This document shows, piece after piece, positions 9,066 to 36,355 of a stretch of DNA of 64,000 nucleotides (position 1 is the first letter of the stretch; each line of letters starts with the position of its first letter). A program made the position numbers and the translations under genes. Source of the stretch: a virus. The stretch lies in the IMG/VR virus record IMGVR_UViG_3300031539_004800; one strand, given 5' to 3'. The notes beneath the pieces are model-generated. The model made no database searches. It worked only from the letters and a program-made list of their open reading frames with translations, and was not told where the DNA came from.

Positions 9066-9953
9066 ATGGGAGCGTATAGAGGAAACGCAGACGTGGTCAT
9101 GGCGGACGCCGAAAGGATCGTCGAACGGCTTGAAACTACCAATGTTACCTTAATCGCACTCACGCAAGAATATCATTGCGCGTACTCTACGATTATGAGG
9201 GCTATCTATACGCGGATGTCGAAGGGGCAATACAGGCAAATCGCTGTAAGAAAATTAGTTAAGGGCAGCGAGTCAACGCAATTCAAAAAGGGACGCGAGA
9301 CGTGGAATAAGAACATGAAGGGGATGCACCTTTCGCGGGCAACCGAGTTCCACAAAGGCCACTTGCCGACAAATCATAAACACACAGGAGCAATCTCTAT
9401 CCGCAACGATAAGTGCGGCAAGCAATCCAGATGGATAAAGGTCTCAGGGGTCATACAGGGAAAGCATAAATGGATACCTTGTGCCCGATATCTTTGGGAA
9501 AAGGAAAACGGCCCCATCCCCGACGGCAAAATTGTAGCCCACACAAACGGCGACACGATGGATGATCGTCCAAAGAACCTGATATTGATTGACCGCCACG
9601 GCCTTATTAACCTGATGCGAAAGAACAATCCGGAGCACAGAAAGAAAGCAATCCGCAATCTCAAAAAGACCTGCAGGCGCCATCGGTTAGAGCGGGCAAA
9701 AAAGCAGCGCTTTCAGCTTAAACTTAAAAAGAGAAACGAAAAACAGGAGGCCGAGGACCGCAGGCACCGGGGGATTGCAGAGGCAGAGATAATCAAGCTG
9801 AGAGGTCCGGTTATTTCATGGTACGAGTGTAGGGGTTGCGGCTATGAAATGTCTCCGCCCAGGCCGCCCTGTCCGAAGTGCGGGCACCTGGTTTTCGAGG
9901 AAATAGAACAACCAGTCGAGTACGCGAGACGTTATGCAGCAATGAACGAATAA
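9066..9953 (+). CDS. HNH endonuclease with NUMOD-like N-terminal repeats
   Basis: TQFKKG, TEFHKGHLP, RYLWEKENGPIPDGKIVAHTNGDTMDDRPKNL. Confidence 0.8.
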   Translation: MGAYRGNADVVMADAERIVERLETTNVTLIALTQEYHCAYSTIMRAIYTRMSKGQYRQIAVRKLVKGSESTQFKKGRETWNKNMKGMHLSRATEFHKGHLPTNHKHTGAISIRNDKCGKQSRWIKVSGVIQGKHKWIPCARYLWEKENGPIPDGKIVAHTNGDTMDDRPKNLILIDRHGLINLMRKNNPEHRKKAIRNLKKTCRRHRLERAKKQRFQLKLKKRNEKQEAEDRRHRGIAEAEIIKLRGPVISWYECRGCGYEMSPPRPPCPKCGHLVFEEIEQPVEYARRYAAMNE

Positions 9954-9964
9954 GCAGGGAAGCT

Positions 9965-10915
9965 ATGTATATCATAACTGAATGGATTGAGCGCTACGAA
10001 GTCAATGATAAGGGGCAGCCGGCAAGGGTGGGCGACAAGCTCCGTGTCAGGCCGCTTGAGTATATCCGGTCAAAGCGGCACGGCCGGTCTCGCAGTGCCG
10101 GATTTGCTGCCATGCAGCGGCGGGCAGGTGATAGGGCGTTTGAGGTTTTTGGGCTTTTCCATAAATTCCTGGAAATTGCGGGCGACGAGGTTGGTGGTAA
10201 CAGGGGATCACTGCTTAATGCCCGAGGGAAACCGGCCACGATAAAAGATCTAGCCTTGATTCTATCTGTCCCCGAAGAAAGCATTGAATTTGCATTAAAT
10301 GTTCTTGTCGATGAAGGGGTTGGGTGGATACAAAAGGTGTCTCCCGAAAATTCCAGAAACTCCGTGAAATTCCTGGAAAATCAGGAAATTCCTGGAAAAT
10401 CAGGAAACGAAAATGAGGCAAAAGCCGTAAGCACTGATAATACAAGCACTTGTGAAAATGCCCCTGAAAACTCCGTGAAATTCCTGGAAAATCAGGAAAA
10501 AAGCGGCGGCTTATATAACGAAACGAAACGAAACGAAACCGAACAGAACGAAACAGAACGAAACGAAACACTCCCGGAATCTCAAGGCTCACAGCAAAAC
10601 TCACAGGCAGGCAATAATGGTGATGAGACGAATTTCGGAGATTTTCAATCTAATTCGTTTTCGCTTCGGTTCGTCTCGGTACTGGAGGGTATCTTAAAAA
10701 CACGCTCGAAGTCTGACAGGTCGGCAATCAGGAATCTCAACAACTGGCTCAACCTGCAGGTGCTGGCGAAAAGGTTCGATGATGGTGTGTTTAGGCGGGT
10801 GGCGGATATTGCGAATGAATCAAAAAGCGGTCGAAATCCGTTGGCCGTTTTCTTTTCAAGGATGGATGAGGAAATCGGGTACAGGGCAAGAGTATTTAAG
10901 GAGAAACAAAAATGA
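9965..10915 (+). CDS. Probable replication initiator (lambda O-like)
   Basis: N-terminal wHTH-like region, central low-complexity linker carrying iterons, position before RusA; ATG with GGA at 9965. Confidence 0.65.
   Translation: MYIITEWIERYEVNDKGQPARVGDKLRVRPLEYIRSKRHGRSRSAGFAAMQRRAGDRAFEVFGLFHKFLEIAGDEVGGNRGSLLNARGKPATIKDLALILSVPEESIEFALNVLVDEGVGWIQKVSPENSRNSVKFLENQEIPGKSGNENEAKAVSTDNTSTCENAPENSVKFLENQEKSGGLYNETKRNETEQNETERNETLPESQGSQQNSQAGNNGDETNFGDFQSNSFSLRFVSVLEGILKTRSKSDRSAIRNLNNWLNLQVLAKRFDDGVFRRVADIANESKSGRNPLAVFFSRMDEEIGYRARVFKEKQK
10370..10498. repeat. Probable origin iterons: three copies of TTCCTGGAAAATCAGGAA
   Basis: Exact copies at 10370, 10389 and 10481, each with TTCCTG/CAGGAA dyad symmetry, inside the initiator gene. 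Confidence 0.7.
10517..10569 (+). repeat. AAC-NN pentamer repeat (11 AAC triplets)
   Basis: AAC-GA x4, then AAC-CG, AG, GA, AG, GA, GA, AAC; encodes NETKRNETEQNETERNET. Confidence 0.85.
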
Positions 10916-17533: not shown

Positions 17534-17870
17534 TGTTAAAAAGACGTACACGGCGGAGGACGTTCTTGCTGCCCGGCTCCAGGGCAGGAAAGAGGCGGAG
17601 GATTTTTTGCAGTTACGGATCAATAATCTGTGCAAAACTCACCACCAGCTTCTGGTTGAAATATTCAGGCTCGACTTAAACGAGCCCGTCGTGGCCGTGT
17701 CCATGCCTCATAAGTTCGCTCAAATGGTCGTAGACAAGCTGAGAAAAAGAAACAAAAAGGACTGGCACGCGAGGATGATTAAATATTACATGAACAGGAG
17801 TGATCGGCAGGTTTTCGGCGACGTTGATATGAGCGATATTCTCACAAGACTTGAACGTGAAGCGATTTAA
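17487..17870 (+). CDS. Hypothetical protein
   Basis: ORF in operon order; start uncertain. Confidence 0.5.
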   Translation: MRRAALTGKCFLANANVKKTYTAEDVLAARLQGRKEAEDFLQLRINNLCKTHHQLLVEIFRLDLNEPVVAVSMPHKFAQMVVDKLRKRNKKDWHARMIKYYMNRSDRQVFGDVDMSDILTRLEREAI

Positions 17871-17893
17871 TAAATTTAAGAAAGGAATCAGTT

Positions 17894-18415
17894 ATGGAAA
17901 CAAGACGAATTACAATCGCTGAAATGCACACGGACACAAGAATTCTTTACAATGTCTTGGAAAGTAAATTTATAAAGAACAAGAAAACCGAAATCAGCTA
18001 CGAGGAATTATCGGCAAGCATCGGGCGGAATGTTCAAATGGATGCTCGCGGATTATTAAGCACGGCCCGCAAAAGAATTGAGAAGGATTTTCAGATTGTG
18101 ATTGAGGCCGTAATGAACGAAGGGCTTCGAGTGACTACTGATTACGCCGGCATTGGCGGAAAAACAAATGCTCACTTGCATCGTCACTCTCAAAAACACA
18201 GAAAGAGACTTCTCAATGCGATTGCAGGAAAGGAACTGACGCCGGAACAAACACTTCCTTTGGCCGTGGAACTCAGTAAGCTGGGAGCGACGGCCCTGTT
18301 CACAAGACGCCAAACACCAAAACAATTAACCGCGTATATCCAGGAGCATAATATACTGGAATTGCCAACTCAGCAGACACTTAAATTGTTTCAAAACGGA
18401 CATAAGACAACTTGA
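17894..18415 (+). CDS. Putative wHTH protein, candidate partner of the RAMP system
   Basis: ISYEELSASIGRNV...LLSTARKRIE resembles HTH; its stop codon is the first unit of array 1. Confidence 0.6.
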   Translation: METRRITIAEMHTDTRILYNVLESKFIKNKKTEISYEELSASIGRNVQMDARGLLSTARKRIEKDFQIVIEAVMNEGLRVTTDYAGIGGKTNAHLHRHSQKHRKRLLNAIAGKELTPEQTLPLAVELSKLGATALFTRRQTPKQLTAYIQEHNILELPTQQTLKLFQNGHKTT

Positions 18416-18501
18416 CAGGACGTGACTCGACCCGACTCGACTGGACGGGATTTGACAGGACTTGACATAACCCGACAAGACGCGACCCGACAAGACAAGA
18501 C
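18412..18501 (+). repeat. NN-GAC pentamer array 1 (18 units), candidate guide RNA
   Basis: 16 of 18 triplets are GAC; NN = TT AG GT TC CC TC TG GG TT AG TT AT CC AA GC CC AA AA. Confidence 0.9.
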
Positions 18502-18528
18502 GAGTTTAGGAGGTGAAACGAAATAAAC

Positions 18529-18613
18529 GAGACAAGACCGAACCAGACTAGACCTGAATAGACAGGATGGGACCAGACGGGACTTGACGAGACGCGACCC
18601 GACAAGACAAGAC
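18529..18613 (+). repeat. NN-GAC pentamer array 2 (17 units), candidate guide RNA
   Basis: NN = GA AA CG CA TA CT TA AG GG CA GG TT GA GC CC AA AA; T-tract follows. Confidence 0.9.
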
Positions 18614-18663
18614 AGGAATTTTTATTCAAGACAACACATTTTTATTTAAGAAAGGAAAGAATA

Positions 18664-19227
18664 ATGATTACAGTAAAAGCAAAACTCAAATCAGCAAGCC
18701 CGTATGGGCAGAGCAGGTATCATAACACGGAAAAGCTCGAAAAGGAAAGCGCGGCGGATTACGAAAAACGCACATGGAAGAACCGCTGCCATACCGATGA
18801 CAAAGGGATGGTCTTTATCCCACCGTCGGCTTTCAAGAACTGCTTATCGGAGGCGGCTAAATATCTCTCAATTCAAATACCAGGCAAAGGTAAGGCCACA
18901 TACACAAAGCATTTTGAGGCCGGAGTTATGGTCTCTGAGATAGTGCCTCTTGGAATTCACATAGACAAAATGCAACCACTATGGCTGTTTGTTCCTGCCG
19001 ACGGCAAGCGTGGCGGGTCTAAGCGAGTAGAAAAGTGCTTTCCTATCACGCAGCAATGGGAAGCCACTGTGACATTCTACGTTTTTGACGAAACTATCAC
19101 AAAAGATGTTTTTAGGTATGTACTGGAACAGGCGGGGAAATTCATCGGTATAGGATTTTCCAGACCTCGGAATAATGGATTTTTTGGCCGATTCGAAGTG
19201 GTCGAAATGTCATGGAATAAATCTTGA
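18664..19227 (+). CDS. Standalone RAMP/Cas7-like protein (Vipr-like)
   Basis: N-terminal strand plus SP, FIPPSAFKNCL (cf. RAMP IPgSslKG.lR), C-terminal Gly-rich loop GKFIGIGFSRPRNNGFFGRFEV; flanked by pentamer arrays. Confidence 0.75.
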   Translation: MITVKAKLKSASPYGQSRYHNTEKLEKESAADYEKRTWKNRCHTDDKGMVFIPPSAFKNCLSEAAKYLSIQIPGKGKATYTKHFEAGVMVSEIVPLGIHIDKMQPLWLFVPADGKRGGSKRVEKCFPITQQWEATVTFYVFDETITKDVFRYVLEQAGKFIGIGFSRPRNNGFFGRFEVVEMSWNKS

Positions 19228-19308
19228 CGGGACCCGACATGACGAGACAGGACAGGACTGGACCTGACTGGACGCGACTCGATACGACAAGACCCGACAT
19301 GACAAGAC
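19224..19308 (+). repeat. NN-GAC pentamer array 3 (17 units), candidate guide RNA
   Basis: NN = TT GG CC AT GA AG AG TG CT TG GC TC AC AA CC AT AA; followed by AAGC and T9. Confidence 0.9.
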
Positions 19309-19347
19309 AAGCTTTTTTTTATTGAGGGCGTAGAAAACGAAATAAAC

Positions 19348-19412
19348 GAGACAAGACCTGACTGGACAGGACATGATGAGATTCGATGAGACGCGACGCT
19401 ACGAGACGAGAC
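19348..19412 (+). repeat. NN-GAC/GAT pentamer array 4 (13 units), candidate guide RNA
   Basis: NN = GA AA CT TG AG AT GA TC GA GC GC GA GA; T-tract follows. Confidence 0.85.
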
Positions 19413-19900
19413 AGAATAGTTTTTTCAATTTGGGGAGTCGGTCAATCCGGCTCTCCATTTTTAGGATTCTCGATATGCACGAACTATTGGAAATGCTCGG
19501 CGGAGTTTACGGATGGTGTTGGTTTGAACATACGGGGCAATATTGGTATTGTTTGCTGTATTGGCCGGCAGAAGAAAAAAAGCCTTGCCGCTGGATTTTG
19601 TCTCGACGGCCTCTTATAATACTTGCCGGGTATATGGGTAGAAATCGGGGGCTGCATTGGGATAGAAAGAGAAGGTGAAAAATGGAAAAGATAAAAAAGT
19701 GGGGCGAATTAAAAAAATATGTAGAAAAACAAGGCATCTCGGATGATACAATAATTAACTCTATAGACATAGATACTGAATCAAATAAAGAAATGAAAAC
19801 TTGGTTCGATTCAGATGGAGAGGCAAATATTTCAAATGAGTACTATAATCGCTAAGATGGTATATTCGACAGGTCTTAATTAAGAAAGAGACGGTGAGTT

Positions 19901-32332: not shown

Positions 32333-35300
32333 ATGGCATTCATATTCCATGATGGTTTTGAAACTGGTGGGGCAGACGCTTGGGCGAGCGTTGTCGGTTC
32401 GCCTACGTTTGTTGTTGGAGCGGCTCATTCTGGTAACTATGGGATGCGGTGTAATCCATCATCGGATGAGGCTCATGTTATGTTCTTAGCGGCGTCAGGT
32501 TATGTACGTGCAGGAACATTTTATATATATATCAACGCCTTGCCCAATGCAGACACTCTTATATGCGGCAGTGCCGGCACGTTAATGACAAATATTAGAT
32601 TAACTACAAACGGCGAGCTTGACTTATATGTAGCAAACACAAAAAAGTTTGATGGCACAACCCAGTTAAGTACCGGCCAGTGGCATCGAATATCGTTTGC
32701 ATCTTTAAGCTTAACACAAAGCTATGTTTGGATCGATGGTAGTCTTGAGCATGACGAGGTAGATTTAAGTTCGGCGTATTGGGGATCATCCGGTTATGGA
32801 TTTGAATTAGGTATTGGTTCGTCAGTAAGTGCAGATATATATTTTGACGATCTTGCTATCAGTGACACTTTAAGCAGTTCTGACCTCGGTGACATCCGAG
32901 TTTTAGCCGCTCGCCCGGTAGGAGAGGGAACTGACCAAGATACTATTTCGGGATACCCTGATGAGGACGCTTGGGGAAATTTAGGAAAAATCACTGATGC
33001 ATTATATACATATCTCGACAGCGATCCGCCAGTTATAACTGACGGTTGTCAATCGGATGGTGATGCTAATATATATCGTTATTCTGTTGTGATGGATGAA
33101 TGTGGCAGCGGCAACCTTGCCGGTATTGGCGGTAGCGATACTATCGTAGCCGTCAATTTCATGTGGTATTACGAAACGGATGGCGGCGGTGCTGATGACT
33201 ACGGCAACAAGGTCATTGTTTCTGATGGTGACTACGTAAATGACAACATAGACGACCCAACTGCCCCTACATGGCTTAAACTTTATGCCGCCGATACTCC
33301 GCAGGGCGCATCTGCATGGTCTCAGGCTTTGGTCAATTCGCTTGAAATGGGCATGGCAAATGTCTCATCAGGCGCTAAAGACGCTTATTGGTACGAAGCC
33401 TATGCGATGGTGGCGTTCAAGGTTGTTGCACCGGCAGGTGACGATTACATACGAACGTTCAATGATGGCGTTGGTATAACAGATGCTCAGACAAAGCTTT
33501 TCGCTTTGATTCGCATTCTCGCAGCGACTCTCGGCGTAACAGATGCGAATACGCATACAAAAACAATGTTTCGCGGATTCGACGAGTCTATGGGTGTTGC
33601 AGACGACAAGAGCAGGAACATCGTGGCATTGCGAACATTGGCTGAGTCTCTTGGAATTACAGATGCAAATATTTCAACGAAAGGTATCTTGCGAACATTG
33701 GCGGATTCACTCGATATTGCCGATTCTCAATTCAAGGGCGAAGGAAAGGTGCTTGCCGACTCAATCGGCGTAACAGATGCCAGGACGTTTGGACAGAGTG
33801 CGATTAGGGTCCTCGCCGAATCTCTGGGATTGACGGATGAGCAAGTCGCTTCGGCGGGATTTATTAAGACGTTGGCTGAGTCGCTTGGATTGACCGATGC
33901 TCAGATTGCTTCGGTGGTATTCAACAAAACGTTGGCCGAGACTTTGGGCTTGACCGATTCAATGGCCGGGACCAAGGGCCAGTTTCGTACTATCGCCGAC
34001 AATCTCGGCTTAACGGACGATGCGGTTCGCAGTTCCGTCATTTTGAGGGTCATATCCGAGTCGCTTGGCATAACCGATTTGCCGTCGAGCATCAGCGTTC
34101 TCGACAGGATAGTCGCCGATACGATCGGGCTGACAGACGCCGGCATGATTAACGGTATTGCCGCAAGAATACTCGAGTCGTTAGGCATTGCAGATTCTAC
34201 TGCGAAAGGTGAAGCTAAGATTATTTCTGATTCGCTTGGTTTGACCGATGAAGCGACAAGAATTATTATTGTTGTCAGGGTCCTCGCCGAGTCGCTTGGC
34301 CTGACCGACAACATATCCAGCTTATTGGCGGAGATCCGGACCGTCTCTGATGATATGGGAATCACCGATCTTATGGCCGCAACCAAGGGGCAATATCGCA
34401 CGGTTGCCGATAGCCTTGGCCTTGTTGACAGCAGTTCTAAGCTTCATATCGCCCTGCGAACATTGTCGGACGATCTGGGACTGACGGACTCGGTTGTAAA
34501 GCTCCTGGCTATCAACAGGATCATAAGCGACAGCGAGGGCCTGACCGACGGGACGGTATTGGCCAGAATGTTGGTAGAGACGGATTCTCTTGGCCTGACC
34601 GATGATTTTACAAAACTGCTGGCACTCGTAAGAACACAAAGCGATGAAGTAGGCTTGACTGATTCCCTGACATCGTTGTTTGCAATTATGAGGACGGTTG
34701 CAGACAGCATAGGATTGACCGATGAAGCAAATAGAATTTGCAGCACCCTTAAGGTTATAGCTGAATCCCTGGGCCTGACCGACAGCGTTTCAAGTGTCTG
34801 GGCGGCTCTGAGAACTGTTGCCGATGATCTTGGCATGACGGACTTAATGTCCGAGGATTTCGTGCCCGGCGGCGAGGCGTTTGTGCGAACAATGAACGAT
34901 GCCCTGGGCCTGACCGACAGCAGTTCCAGGATCCATGTTGCGTTGCGGACCTTGTCTGAAAATCTCGGCTTGACGGACTCTGTTGTAAAGCTGTTCATCG
35001 TCAGCCGGCTTGTAAGTGACAGCGAAGGCATAACGGACGGCGTTGTTTTAAGCAGAGTATTGTTGGTGACGGACGGCCTGGGCATGACAGATAGCCTTAC
35101 GAGGCTGCTGACTATTCTTAGAACTCAGGACGATCCTGTTGGCGTGACCGATTCATTGACTTCCCTATTGTCTATCCTGCGGACGGTCCTCGATGCGATG
35201 GGTATATCCGATTCCCGAACCAAAGATGAGGGTAAGGTGATTGCGGATTCTATCGGCGTTACCGATTCAGTGACCCACGTTTACGCGATCTTAAAAACGA

Positions 35301-36355
35301 TAGCCGATTCTCTCGGAATGGCTGACGATATCGGCCGCGTGTGGACGGTTGTCAGGACTCTTGCCAGCAGTTTAGGCATTACGGACGAGATGGATGCCGA
35401 GGGTATCGGCAATATTCTTAAGACAATAAACAATTCCATCGGCTTAACCGACAGCACATCCAAAACTTTCATCGCCCTGCGTGTTATATCTGAAAGCCTT
35501 GCTATAAGCGATTCAGTAGTAAGCCTGTTTGCCATCAGCAAGCTCGTAAGCGACAGTGAGGGTATTACGGACGGCCTTACATTGAAAAGGGTTTTGGCTG
35601 TCACGGACGCTTTGGGCCTGACGGATGATTTCACAAAGCAATTATCTATCGTGAAAACAGAGAGCGATGAGGTTGGCTTGACCGATGCCCTGGGTTCATT
35701 GCTTGTGATGCTTCGGATGGTGCAAGAGAACATTGGTATCACGGATTCACAATCGAAGGGTGAAGGCAAATCTCTTGCCGACTCAATAGGGCTTACCGAT
35801 TCGGCGTCCCGCGTCTATGTTGCCGTCAAGACGATAGCGGACTCAATGGGCATTGCCGATGACATGGGCCGGATCTGGACCGTGCTAAGAACGGTTGCGG
35901 ATTCGCTTGGCATCACGGATGCAATAGATACCGACGGTGTCGGGAATTATTTCAGGACAATCAATAACGCCCTGGGCATAAGCGACAGTACGGAGAGGGT
36001 GTTTGTAACGCTCCGGGTTCTTTCAGATAATCTCGGCTTGACGGACGCCATGGCGAGCCTCTTTGCGGTCAGCCGGATCATCAGCGATTCGGAGGGGATC
36101 ACAGACGGCATTGCTTTAGGCAGGCTCATAGCATTAACAGACACGCTCGGCATATCCGATTCGGTCACAAAGCTCATCGATTATCTGCGGACACAGGGCG
36201 ATGCCATAGGAACTCTCGACGCCATGATTAGAGTATCTGTGGCAATTCGGTCGATAAACGACAGCATGAATATTACGGATGAAGAAATACATCAGCTTAG
36301 CGGTCTAATGAAGGCCGCCTGGGCATTTATGGTAATGAGGCAAACTCATAACTGA
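32333..36355 (+). CDS. Large virion protein: lectin/LamG-like head plus ~50 tandem ~19-aa repeats
   Basis: R..(A/S)(D/E)SLG(L/I)TD repeats from about aa 370 to the end. Confidence 0.8.
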   Translation: MAFIFHDGFETGGADAWASVVGSPTFVVGAAHSGNYGMRCNPSSDEAHVMFLAASGYVRAGTFYIYINALPNADTLICGSAGTLMTNIRLTTNGELDLYVANTKKFDGTTQLSTGQWHRISFASLSLTQSYVWIDGSLEHDEVDLSSAYWGSSGYGFELGIGSSVSADIYFDDLAISDTLSSSDLGDIRVLAARPVGEGTDQDTISGYPDEDAWGNLGKITDALYTYLDSDPPVITDGCQSDGDANIYRYSVVMDECGSGNLAGIGGSDTIVAVNFMWYYETDGGGADDYGNKVIVSDGDYVNDNIDDPTAPTWLKLYAADTPQGASAWSQALVNSLEMGMANVSSGAKDAYWYEAYAMVAFKVVAPAGDDYIRTFNDGVGITDAQTKLFALIRILAATLGVTDANTHTKTMFRGFDESMGVADDKSRNIVALRTLAESLGITDANISTKGILRTLADSLDIADSQFKGEGKVLADSIGVTDARTFGQSAIRVLAESLGLTDEQVASAGFIKTLAESLGLTDAQIASVVFNKTLAETLGLTDSMAGTKGQFRTIADNLGLTDDAVRSSVILRVISESLGITDLPSSISVLDRIVADTIGLTDAGMINGIAARILESLGIADSTAKGEAKIISDSLGLTDEATRIIIVVRVLAESLGLTDNISSLLAEIRTVSDDMGITDLMAATKGQYRTVADSLGLVDSSSKLHIALRTLSDDLGLTDSVVKLLAINRIISDSEGLTDGTVLARMLVETDSLGLTDDFTKLLALVRTQSDEVGLTDSLTSLFAIMRTVADSIGLTDEANRICSTLKVIAESLGLTDSVSSVWAALRTVADDLGMTDLMSEDFVPGGEAFVRTMNDALGLTDSSSRIHVALRTLSENLGLTDSVVKLFIVSRLVSDSEGITDGVVLSRVLLVTDGLGMTDSLTRLLTILRTQDDPVGVTDSLTSLLSILRTVLDAMGISDSRTKDEGKVIADSIGVTDSVTHVYAILKTIADSLGMADDIGRVWTVVRTLASSLGITDEMDAEGIGNILKTINNSIGLTDSTSKTFIALRVISESLAISDSVVSLFAISKLVSDSEGITDGLTLKRVLAVTDALGLTDDFTKQLSIVKTESDEVGLTDALGSLLVMLRMVQENIGITDSQSKGEGKSLADSIGLTDSASRVYVAVKTIADSMGIADDMGRIWTVLRTVADSLGITDAIDTDGVGNYFRTINNALGISDSTERVFVTLRVLSDNLGLTDAMASLFAVSRIISDSEGITDGIALGRLIALTDTLGISDSVTKLIDYLRTQGDAIGTLDAMIRVSVAIRSINDSMNITDEEIHQLSGLMKAAWAFMVMRQTHN

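Follow-up and report, generated by a model that had tools for sequence, protein, structure and literature searches.

A probable VIPR system with GAC guides in the genome of a tailed soil phage

The DNA analysed here is the whole 64,000-nt stretch of IMG/VR virus record IMGVR_UViG_3300031539_004800, referred to below as the window, and locus coordinates are given as positions in it. On its + strand, two genes for proteins of 173 and 187 aa are accompanied by four arrays (A1–A4) of 5-nt units, in each of which a nearly fixed GAC triplet is followed by two variable bases (NN). The locus is very probably a VIPR (Viral Interference Programmable Repeat) system with GAC guides. Such systems were discovered in phages as RAMP proteins (Vipr) with accessory vap genes and guide RNAs (vrRNAs) of ∼100 nt that consist of 9–16 units of GGY/NN; through its NN bases such a guide reads double-stranded DNA, skipping one base per unit, and seven types were distinguished (bioRxiv 10.64898/2026.04.26.720920). 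The initial annotation of the locus had described these systems correctly and had proposed one with GAC (GAY) in place of GGY, a proposal that is borne out by homology to Vipr, by the protein fold and by the anatomy of the arrays.

The positions and unit numbers of the four arrays, two on each side of the 187-aa gene, were found to be exactly as first annotated, and so was the list of triplets: in place of the canonical GGY, the 65 units carry GAC (55), GAT (six), AAC (two), GAA (one) and TAC (one). Counted by position, G stands first in 62 units and A second in 65 of 65, and the third base is C in 58 and T in six. Positions 4 and 5 are near-random (entropy 1.95 and 1.96 bits), with 16 of 16 dinucleotides present. 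A pattern of five consecutive GACNN units was matched 19 times in the window as against 0.00 times in 100 dinucleotide-preserving shuffles, and a scan of the full 64 kb for a 5-nt period returned the four arrays, one coding AACGA run (10517–10569) and nothing else. A fixed scaffold in a fixed frame with free NN bases is the signature expected of programmable guides. No significant secondary structure was predicted for the array RNA (z from 0.49 to −1.75, the lowest value being that of A2), an Rfam search returned no family and no hammerhead between the arrays, and no convincing sigma-70 promoter was found in the locus. Minus-strand open reading frames (ORFs) over the arrays (e.g., 18381–18629 and 19077–19310) were not accepted as genes on account of their codon pattern: they stay open only because NNGTC repeats seldom create stop codons.

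The 187-aa protein is a true Vipr homologue with a Cas7-type RAMP fold. A phmmer search of PDB sequences gave chain 36pp_D, "SUSP1 Vipr protein", as the sole real match (E 1.4e-5), and tblastn returned 119 phage records, mostly of Felixounavirus and Suspvirus and including SUSP1, at a query coverage of 95–97% (SUSP1 97%). In a pairwise BLASTP alignment with the SUSP1 protein (YP_009199429) the identity was 26% from end to end (E 1e-12). The AlphaFold model, which was built from 77 homologues, reached a predicted local distance difference test score (pLDDT) of 97.4 and a predicted template modelling score of 0.90. Its top PDB matches in Foldseek were all type VII Cas7, Csm3 and Cmr subunits with a probability of 1.0 (best match 8z4j_J, E 1.7e-7; 118 PDB chains at E ≤ 1e-3), so that the fold check which had been proposed for 18664–19227 returned the Cas7/Csm3 RAMP fold. 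Both RAMP-like motifs that had first drawn attention to the gene, IPPSAFKNCL and the Gly-rich loop GIGFSRPRNNGFFGRF, are present in the ORF; the latter aligns with the G-loop of SUSP1 Vipr, and the invariant residues of the Vipr family are retained. In the model, the hairpin of residues 104–111 and 121–129, with the tip ADGKRGGSK, probably forms the thumb. The ORF is a member of phrog_4652, for which no function is annotated, and the Vipr family as a whole comprises 2539 homologues in 90% clusters and 1184 clusters at 50% identity. Pfam holds no family for either gene of the locus.

The RNA recognition motif core, the Gly-rich loop and the thumb hairpin are shared with the Cas7 backbone subunits of class 1 CRISPR systems (type VII Cas7, Csm3, Cmr4/6), and Cas7 subunits and Vipr both polymerise along a guide RNA in a fixed register. 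The identity to Cas7 is 9–15%, however, and the Vipr register is 5 nt with three hidden bases, whereas that of Cas7 is 6 nt with one flipped base. The gene is carried by a phage, and no CRISPR repeat handle belongs to it. The fold is all that the locus shares with class 1 CRISPR-Cas; CRISPR arrays, crRNA handles and other cas genes were searched for in the 64 kb, and none was found, as the initial annotation had stated for the arrays and cas genes. No CRISPR-type repeat array was found in the window, and PADLOC and Pfam gave no cas matches for the genes of the locus.

For comparison, 133 loci with Vipr homologues of 35–91% identity were fetched from IMG/VR and GTDB genomes. Of 128 relatives, 125 have an array with a 5-nt period no more than 400 nt from vipr, and 82 have one on both sides of the gene; this is the co-occurrence of homologues and arrays that the initial annotation had named as a check. 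The closest relatives (91% identity) are one contig filed in two metagenome-assembled genomes (MAGs) of Sedimentisphaerales. In one of its two copies (L026), the flanking genes and the end of vap are retained, and so are the leaders (GAAAACGAAATAAAC), the ends of the arrays (GACAAGACAAG and a T-run) and the terminator; the contig has five arrays, as opposed to four in the window, and their NN content differs. Because this relative keeps the architecture and changes the guide content, turnover of the guides under selection is indicated.

The sequence of the window is also present in six soil metagenomes, four of which were compared across the region and contain divergent variants besides that of the window. 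The protein-coding parts of the soil variants differ by ∼8–9%, and the contigs end, break or rearrange in the arrays, with joints that go back by 51 nt and 43 nt and a 139-nt skip with replaced units. The NN bases are hypervariable between strains. In the soil runs X3–X6, aligned to positions 17800–19600 of the window, at least two variants of the locus co-occur in the same soils.

The gene was initially described as standalone. This part of the description did not hold, since a conserved vap1-like gene, left uninterpreted at the time, occupies 17894–18415. In 66 of the fetched loci a homologue of it adjoins vipr and shares its strand, lying downstream in 56 and upstream, as here, in ten. BLASTP of the 173-aa protein against SUSP1 Vap1 gave no match. 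By profile–profile comparison of 45 homologues with SUSP1 Vap1 and its LESphi2 homologue (probability 93%, E 3.4e-7, 97 columns), the protein is a distant homologue of Vap1, the accessory protein of type II VIPR. Its AlphaFold model (pLDDT 91) starts with the helix-strand-helix-helix-strand-strand order typical of winged helices and continues with long helices. A search of the PDB with the model gave nothing significant; the best E value was 0.12, and winged-helix regulators were among the weak matches.

Several features support the GAC (+) strand as the vrRNA, the strand that had been suggested from the T-tracts. T-runs follow A2, A3 and A4 on the + strand, every gene of the locus lies on that strand, and among the relatives T-runs after array ends number 145 when read on the vipr strand and 65 when read on the opposite one. 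The degeneracy of the scaffold sits at its third base (GAY), as it does in GGY. The terminator hairpin (19431–19457) is a strong fold that could function on the + strand only. The 3′ ends are conserved: the last units of A1, GACCC GACAA GACAA GACGA, recur between arrays and in relatives, GACAAGACAAGC with a T-run is found again where the arrays of GAC-type relatives end, and the 3′ end common to these relatives is GACAA GACAA GC followed by a U-run. The leader GAAACGAAATAAAC of the spacer between A1 and A2 also precedes A4, as well as the second and later arrays of the closest relative. In addition, A1 and A3 begin at TGA stops, with TGA-C supplying the first GAC, and the RNA strand of SUSP1 is the vipr strand. 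The stop codons of vap and vipr (18413–18416 and 19225–19228) overlap the first GAC unit in the sequence CTTGAC, and the same overlap is present in several GAC-type relatives. Since both arrays start at stop codons, A1 and A3 are probably derived from 3′ untranslated regions, which suggests that the first guide of each pair would be cut from the 3′ untranslated region of an mRNA.

Table 1. Features of the probable VIPR locus (aa, amino acids; positions refer to the window).
Feature	Positions	Strand	Remarks
vap1-like accessory gene, 173 aa	17894..18415	+	predicted winged-helix-like N-terminal domain, then long helices
vrRNA array A1, 18 GAC-NN units	18414..18503	+	first GAC overlaps vap TGA stop
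inter-array spacer/leader GTTTAGGAGGTGAAACGAAATAAACGA	18504..18530	+	
vrRNA array A2, 17 units, then GAATTTTTATT	18531..18615	+	
vipr, 187-aa Cas7-like RAMP	18664..19227	+	thumb hairpin ∼104–129 (from the model); G-loop 162–176 (GIGFSRPRNNGFFGRF)
vrRNA array A3, 17 units	19226..19310	+	first GAC overlaps vipr TGA stop
T-run plus leader GCTTTTTTTTATTGAGGGCGTAGAAAACGAAATAAACGA	19311..19349	+	
vrRNA array A4, 13 units	19350..19414	+	more degenerate (GAT ×3, TAC ×1)
intrinsic terminator closing the locus	19431..19462	+	11-bp stem, 7 G-C pairs, then TTTTT

One of the nearest described systems is the type II VIPR of Escherichia phage SUSP1 and a clade of Pseudomonas fulva prophages, which consists of Vipr, Vap1 and vrRNAs (10.64898/2026.04.26.720920,.720927; PDB 36pp). 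Both systems are encoded by phages and have 5-nt units of three fixed and two variable bases, placed on both sides of vipr and on the vipr strand; the Vipr proteins are homologous, the Vap1 proteins distantly so, and cas genes, a CRISPR array and a self-target are absent from both. The locus differs from that of SUSP1 in its GAC/GAY scaffold (GGY in SUSP1), in the position of vap upstream rather than downstream of vipr, in the 13–18 units per array (9–16 in SUSP1), in a 3′ end of two or three GACAA units and a U-run instead of a pseudoknot tail of ∼40 nt, and in its host, which is probably a soil planctomycete (Sedimentisphaerales) and not an enterobacterium.

The initial annotation had also considered the system to be possibly an undescribed subtype. 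This has been overtaken, because non-canonical VIPR arrays with GAC/NN, CAC/NN, WGT/NN and TGH/NN repeats beside Vipr-like folds, detected through entropy periodicity, are given in a later report (bioRxiv 10.64898/2026.10.21.760802). The arrays described there resemble the present ones in having GAC/NN beside a Vipr-like fold, and such a cluster very probably includes the window. The discovery paper itself leaves room for "a related consensus" and gives NNNGG, YNNNG and NNNNG as alternative repeats (10.64898/2026.04.26.720920). The locus lacks the canonical motif and yet fits the broadened VIPR family, because the later report names GAC/NN as a non-canonical repeat. With VIPR (April 2026) and the GAC/NN arrays (October 2026) both already in print, the locus is now ordinary as an object, being one more VIPR locus with an already named repeat type; it extends VIPR to phages binned with soil Planctomycetota. 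Judged by its text, the October report is confined to the motif classes and the neighbouring fold; the switching of triplets described below (at least ten triplets among proteins of 45–68% identity) is not stated there and, like the link between triplet and protein residues, comes from the present analysis.

By analogy with SUSP1, the following mode of action is proposed. The locus, with the vap1-like gene first, vipr between two pairs of vrRNA genes and the terminator last, would be transcribed from the + strand, as homology with SUSP1 indicates, and one Vipr protomer would bind each 5-nt unit of the guide to form a ribonucleoprotein (RNP). Adjacent protomers would hide the fixed G-A-Y triplet while leaving the two variable bases exposed, so that the filament could read double-stranded DNA by a gapped code of NN, one skipped base, NN, and so on. 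The outcome would be repression of a rival mobile element, aided by the winged-helix-like Vap. The GAC scaffold would be matched by a changed protein pocket (Phe165, Leu106, Gly15). For the guides of the window, the gapped code is inferred by homology, since the searches turned up neither a natural target nor RNA data.

Targets were searched for at several scales. When the four guides were compared with the window, allowing skips of 0–3 nt, the best matches were ∼60% and no self-target was found, an absence that is consistent with the systems of the VIPR paper itself; the five guides of L026 gave no match in the window either. The 202 guides of all fetched loci were compared with the 743 kb of fetched DNA; none matched at ≥90%, and the skip rules performed equally. 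No match was found for the variable parts of A1–A4, with up to three mismatches, in the two MAGs to which the closest relative is assigned, or for A1, with up to three mismatches, in 251 genomes of the same order. Scans of IMG/VR and JGI metagenomes for exact 10-unit cores of A2, A3 and A4 were empty (four of six scans), and no natural target under the 1-nt skip rule was found at ≥80% in the sequences searched. The searches are low in power because the phages of the host are poorly sampled.

Units 2–11 of A1 did match a major-head gene of a phage (phrog_267; L134 and L150, which are one contig, 1533–1561) and a sequence encoding the SRPBCC motif [IM]KLNP[QH][DE]G[DE]T (L148, 1070–1098; L149, 586–614; L151–L153). 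In these 10-unit matches the NN bases always fall on codon positions 1 and 2 and the wobble base is free, an arrangement that is to be expected a priori, since stop codons would arise in the other frames. The matches were rejected as evidence of a target and kept as a lead: two independent events are about what chance would give (roughly one or two, on an estimate that uses the length of the pattern and a guess at the size of the collection), and the other eight units match at a random level.

A rough probability of 0.85 is assigned to a VIPR system with GAC guides that acts in the manner of SUSP1. Four considerations weigh against it. The window sequence was found in six soil DNA runs and in no RNA run. 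No natural target under the 1-nt skip rule came to light, whether in the window itself, in two genomes of candidate hosts, in 251 genomes of their order, in IMG/VR or in the JGI metagenomes, and the only 10-unit matches lie near chance level, without extension along the guide. No counterpart of the 3′ pseudoknot tail of SUSP1 was found, its place being taken by the conserved terminal GACAA units and the U-run. Finally, a panel of SUSP1 mutants included GGY>GAY, and perturbation of GGY was stated to abolish silencing (10.64898/2026.04.26.720920); a GAC scaffold would for that reason need a changed protein pocket, of which covariation is the sole indication.

An RNP of the Vipr family with another read-out, be it a different skip length, an RNA target or regulation of the phage's own genes, is unlikely. 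The 1-nt skip rule was demonstrated only for type II GGY systems (10.64898/2026.04.26.720920), no skip length from 0 to 3 matched better in any sequence searched, the 3′ tail is unlike that of SUSP1 and the identity of the protein to SUSP1 Vipr is no higher than 26%. Against this, the skipped target base in SUSP1 is set by the geometry of the thumb and helical bundle and not by the identity of the scaffold (structural preprint), and those fold elements are conserved here; the lack of a self-match in the 64-kb phage genome is contrary to self-regulation through perfect sites, and the even performance of the skip lengths comes from target searches of low power, the phages of the host being poorly sampled. 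Still less probable is a decaying or non-functional remnant of a VIPR system, as might be suspected from the shorter and more degenerate A4 (4 of 13 units not GAC) and the missing target: neither gene is disrupted, the confidence of the Vipr model is very high, the invariant residues of the family are kept, A is invariant in all 65 units and the same architecture recurs with different guide content in the 91%-identical relative. That the arrays act as DNA, either as phased sites for the winged-helix-like protein or Vipr or as curved or structural DNA, is scarcely credible, for although a period of 5 bp corresponds to half a turn of the helix, the arrays adjoin the gene for a predicted winged-helix-like protein and the sequence was found in DNA runs and in no RNA run, the homologous SUSP1 arrays are transcribed and co-purify with Vipr (10.64898/2026.04.26.720920), the near-random NN bases differ between near-identical phages, unlike those of binding-site arrays, the T-runs favour the vipr strand and a unidirectional terminator closes the locus.

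Within one clade of Vipr proteins of 45–91% identity, the fixed triplet was found to have switched many times. Among the relatives it is GGC in 68, GAC in 18, CGC in 17, GTC in seven, CTC in five, GTT in three, AGC/AGT in five, CAC in two, and ATT and CGA in one each. Close Vipr proteins of 45–68% identity differ in their triplet (e.g., L003, 3558–3657; L076, 2253–2470; L028, 3763–3891; L022, 2035–2121). On a maximum-likelihood tree at least 34 changes of the triplet are needed; GAC accounts for ten, at least three of which are forced by well-supported branches.

Mutual information with the middle base of the triplet was highest at three columns of the Vipr alignment, in which the window protein has Phe165 for the Arg of GGC-type relatives, Leu106 for Glu and Gly15 for Ser. 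In SUSP1, the first G of the scaffold is contacted by H17 and D177 and the second by R138 and W178, and the pocket for Y3 is formed by E71, M72, C173, T175 and R179 (structural preprint). Column 165 is that of SUSP1 D177, so that one of the three tracking columns is a known scaffold contact; the two G-loop residues are D177/W178 in SUSP1, R/F in GGC-type relatives and F/S in the window. Arg165 and Glu106 go with a middle G, and their loss (Phe, Tyr or Ser together with Leu or Gln) goes with a middle A.

The association was examined prospectively: predictions were written down before 12 further contigs were fetched. All 11 proteins without Arg165 were found to have a middle A (nine GAC/GAY, one mixed GAT/GAC and one CAC), and the Arg165 control was dominated by GGC. 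A finer prediction of CTC for P0012 and P0017 failed, both loci being GAC. When the 113 distinct proteins were pooled, Arg165 was accompanied by a middle G in 70, a middle T in nine and a middle A in six, and residues other than Arg165 by a middle G in none, a middle T in six and a middle A in 22 (Fisher's exact test of residue 165 against the middle base, p = 6e-16, with relatedness ignored). A phylogeny-controlled test of the covariation is powerless because the strongly supported branches offer no more than two independent pairs. Ser/Glu/Arg are retained in five GAC loci, so that the replacement residues are not strictly necessary for a GAC scaffold. In one of the five, L004 (3543–3680), a single array mixes GAC and GGC units (GRC) and Vipr keeps Ser/Glu/Arg; this locus may represent an intermediate state or one of relaxed specificity.

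These alignments suggest that Arg165 and Glu106 read the middle guanine and that hydrophobic residues replace them when the middle base is adenine. Tentatively, and with rather less than even confidence, the scaffold triplet and residues 165, 106 and 15 may be regarded as a lock and key that co-evolves, switches rapidly and keeps VIPR systems insulated from each other. If this were true, VIPR systems that reside together would become mutually orthogonal through triplet switching. The switching could also serve to evade "solo" vrRNAs, by which satellites or rival phages hijack Vipr; a third preprint describes such hijacking by "solo" vrRNAs and the action of the SUSP1 VIPR against a satellite. 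The clade offers many natural pairs of close Vipr proteins with different fixed triplets, which could be used to study the recognition of guides by their own Vipr and the feasibility of orthogonal VIPR pairs.

Judged by its genes, the element that carries the locus is a tailed soil phage: the window encodes a RecT-like annealing protein, an HNH protein, small and large terminase subunits, a portal and a major head protein, and the relatives are IMG/VR viral contigs. The two copies of the closest relative, L024 (DATKYR010000003.1) and L026 (DATLBB010000373.1), are 62,170 bp each, are identical over the 3.8 kb compared and belong to two Sedimentisphaerales MAGs. The contig is probably a whole phage genome that was binned with cellular contigs, which makes the assignment of a planctomycete host uncertain.

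The AACGA run at 10517–10569 was rejected as a fifth guide, because it lies in frame in ORF 9878–10915, encodes NETKRNETEQNETERNET and is situated beside 32-nt iterons. Three copies of the iteron AAACTCCGTGAAATTCCTGGAAAATCAGGAAA are followed by the (AACGA)n run between 10348 and 10570, and ∼65 nt around the run are nucleotide-identical in a relative whose protein is 66% identical. From this arrangement, the iterons and the run are more likely to be a replication origin within an initiator-like gene, as in lambdoid phages, than a guide. Elsewhere in the window, coding repeats with a period of 60 nt occur at 33449–33958 in ORF 32333–36355 (1340 aa), which matches only phrog_12240, a family with no annotated function; the ORF may encode a tape-measure or tail protein, and its repeats are unrelated to the VIPR locus.

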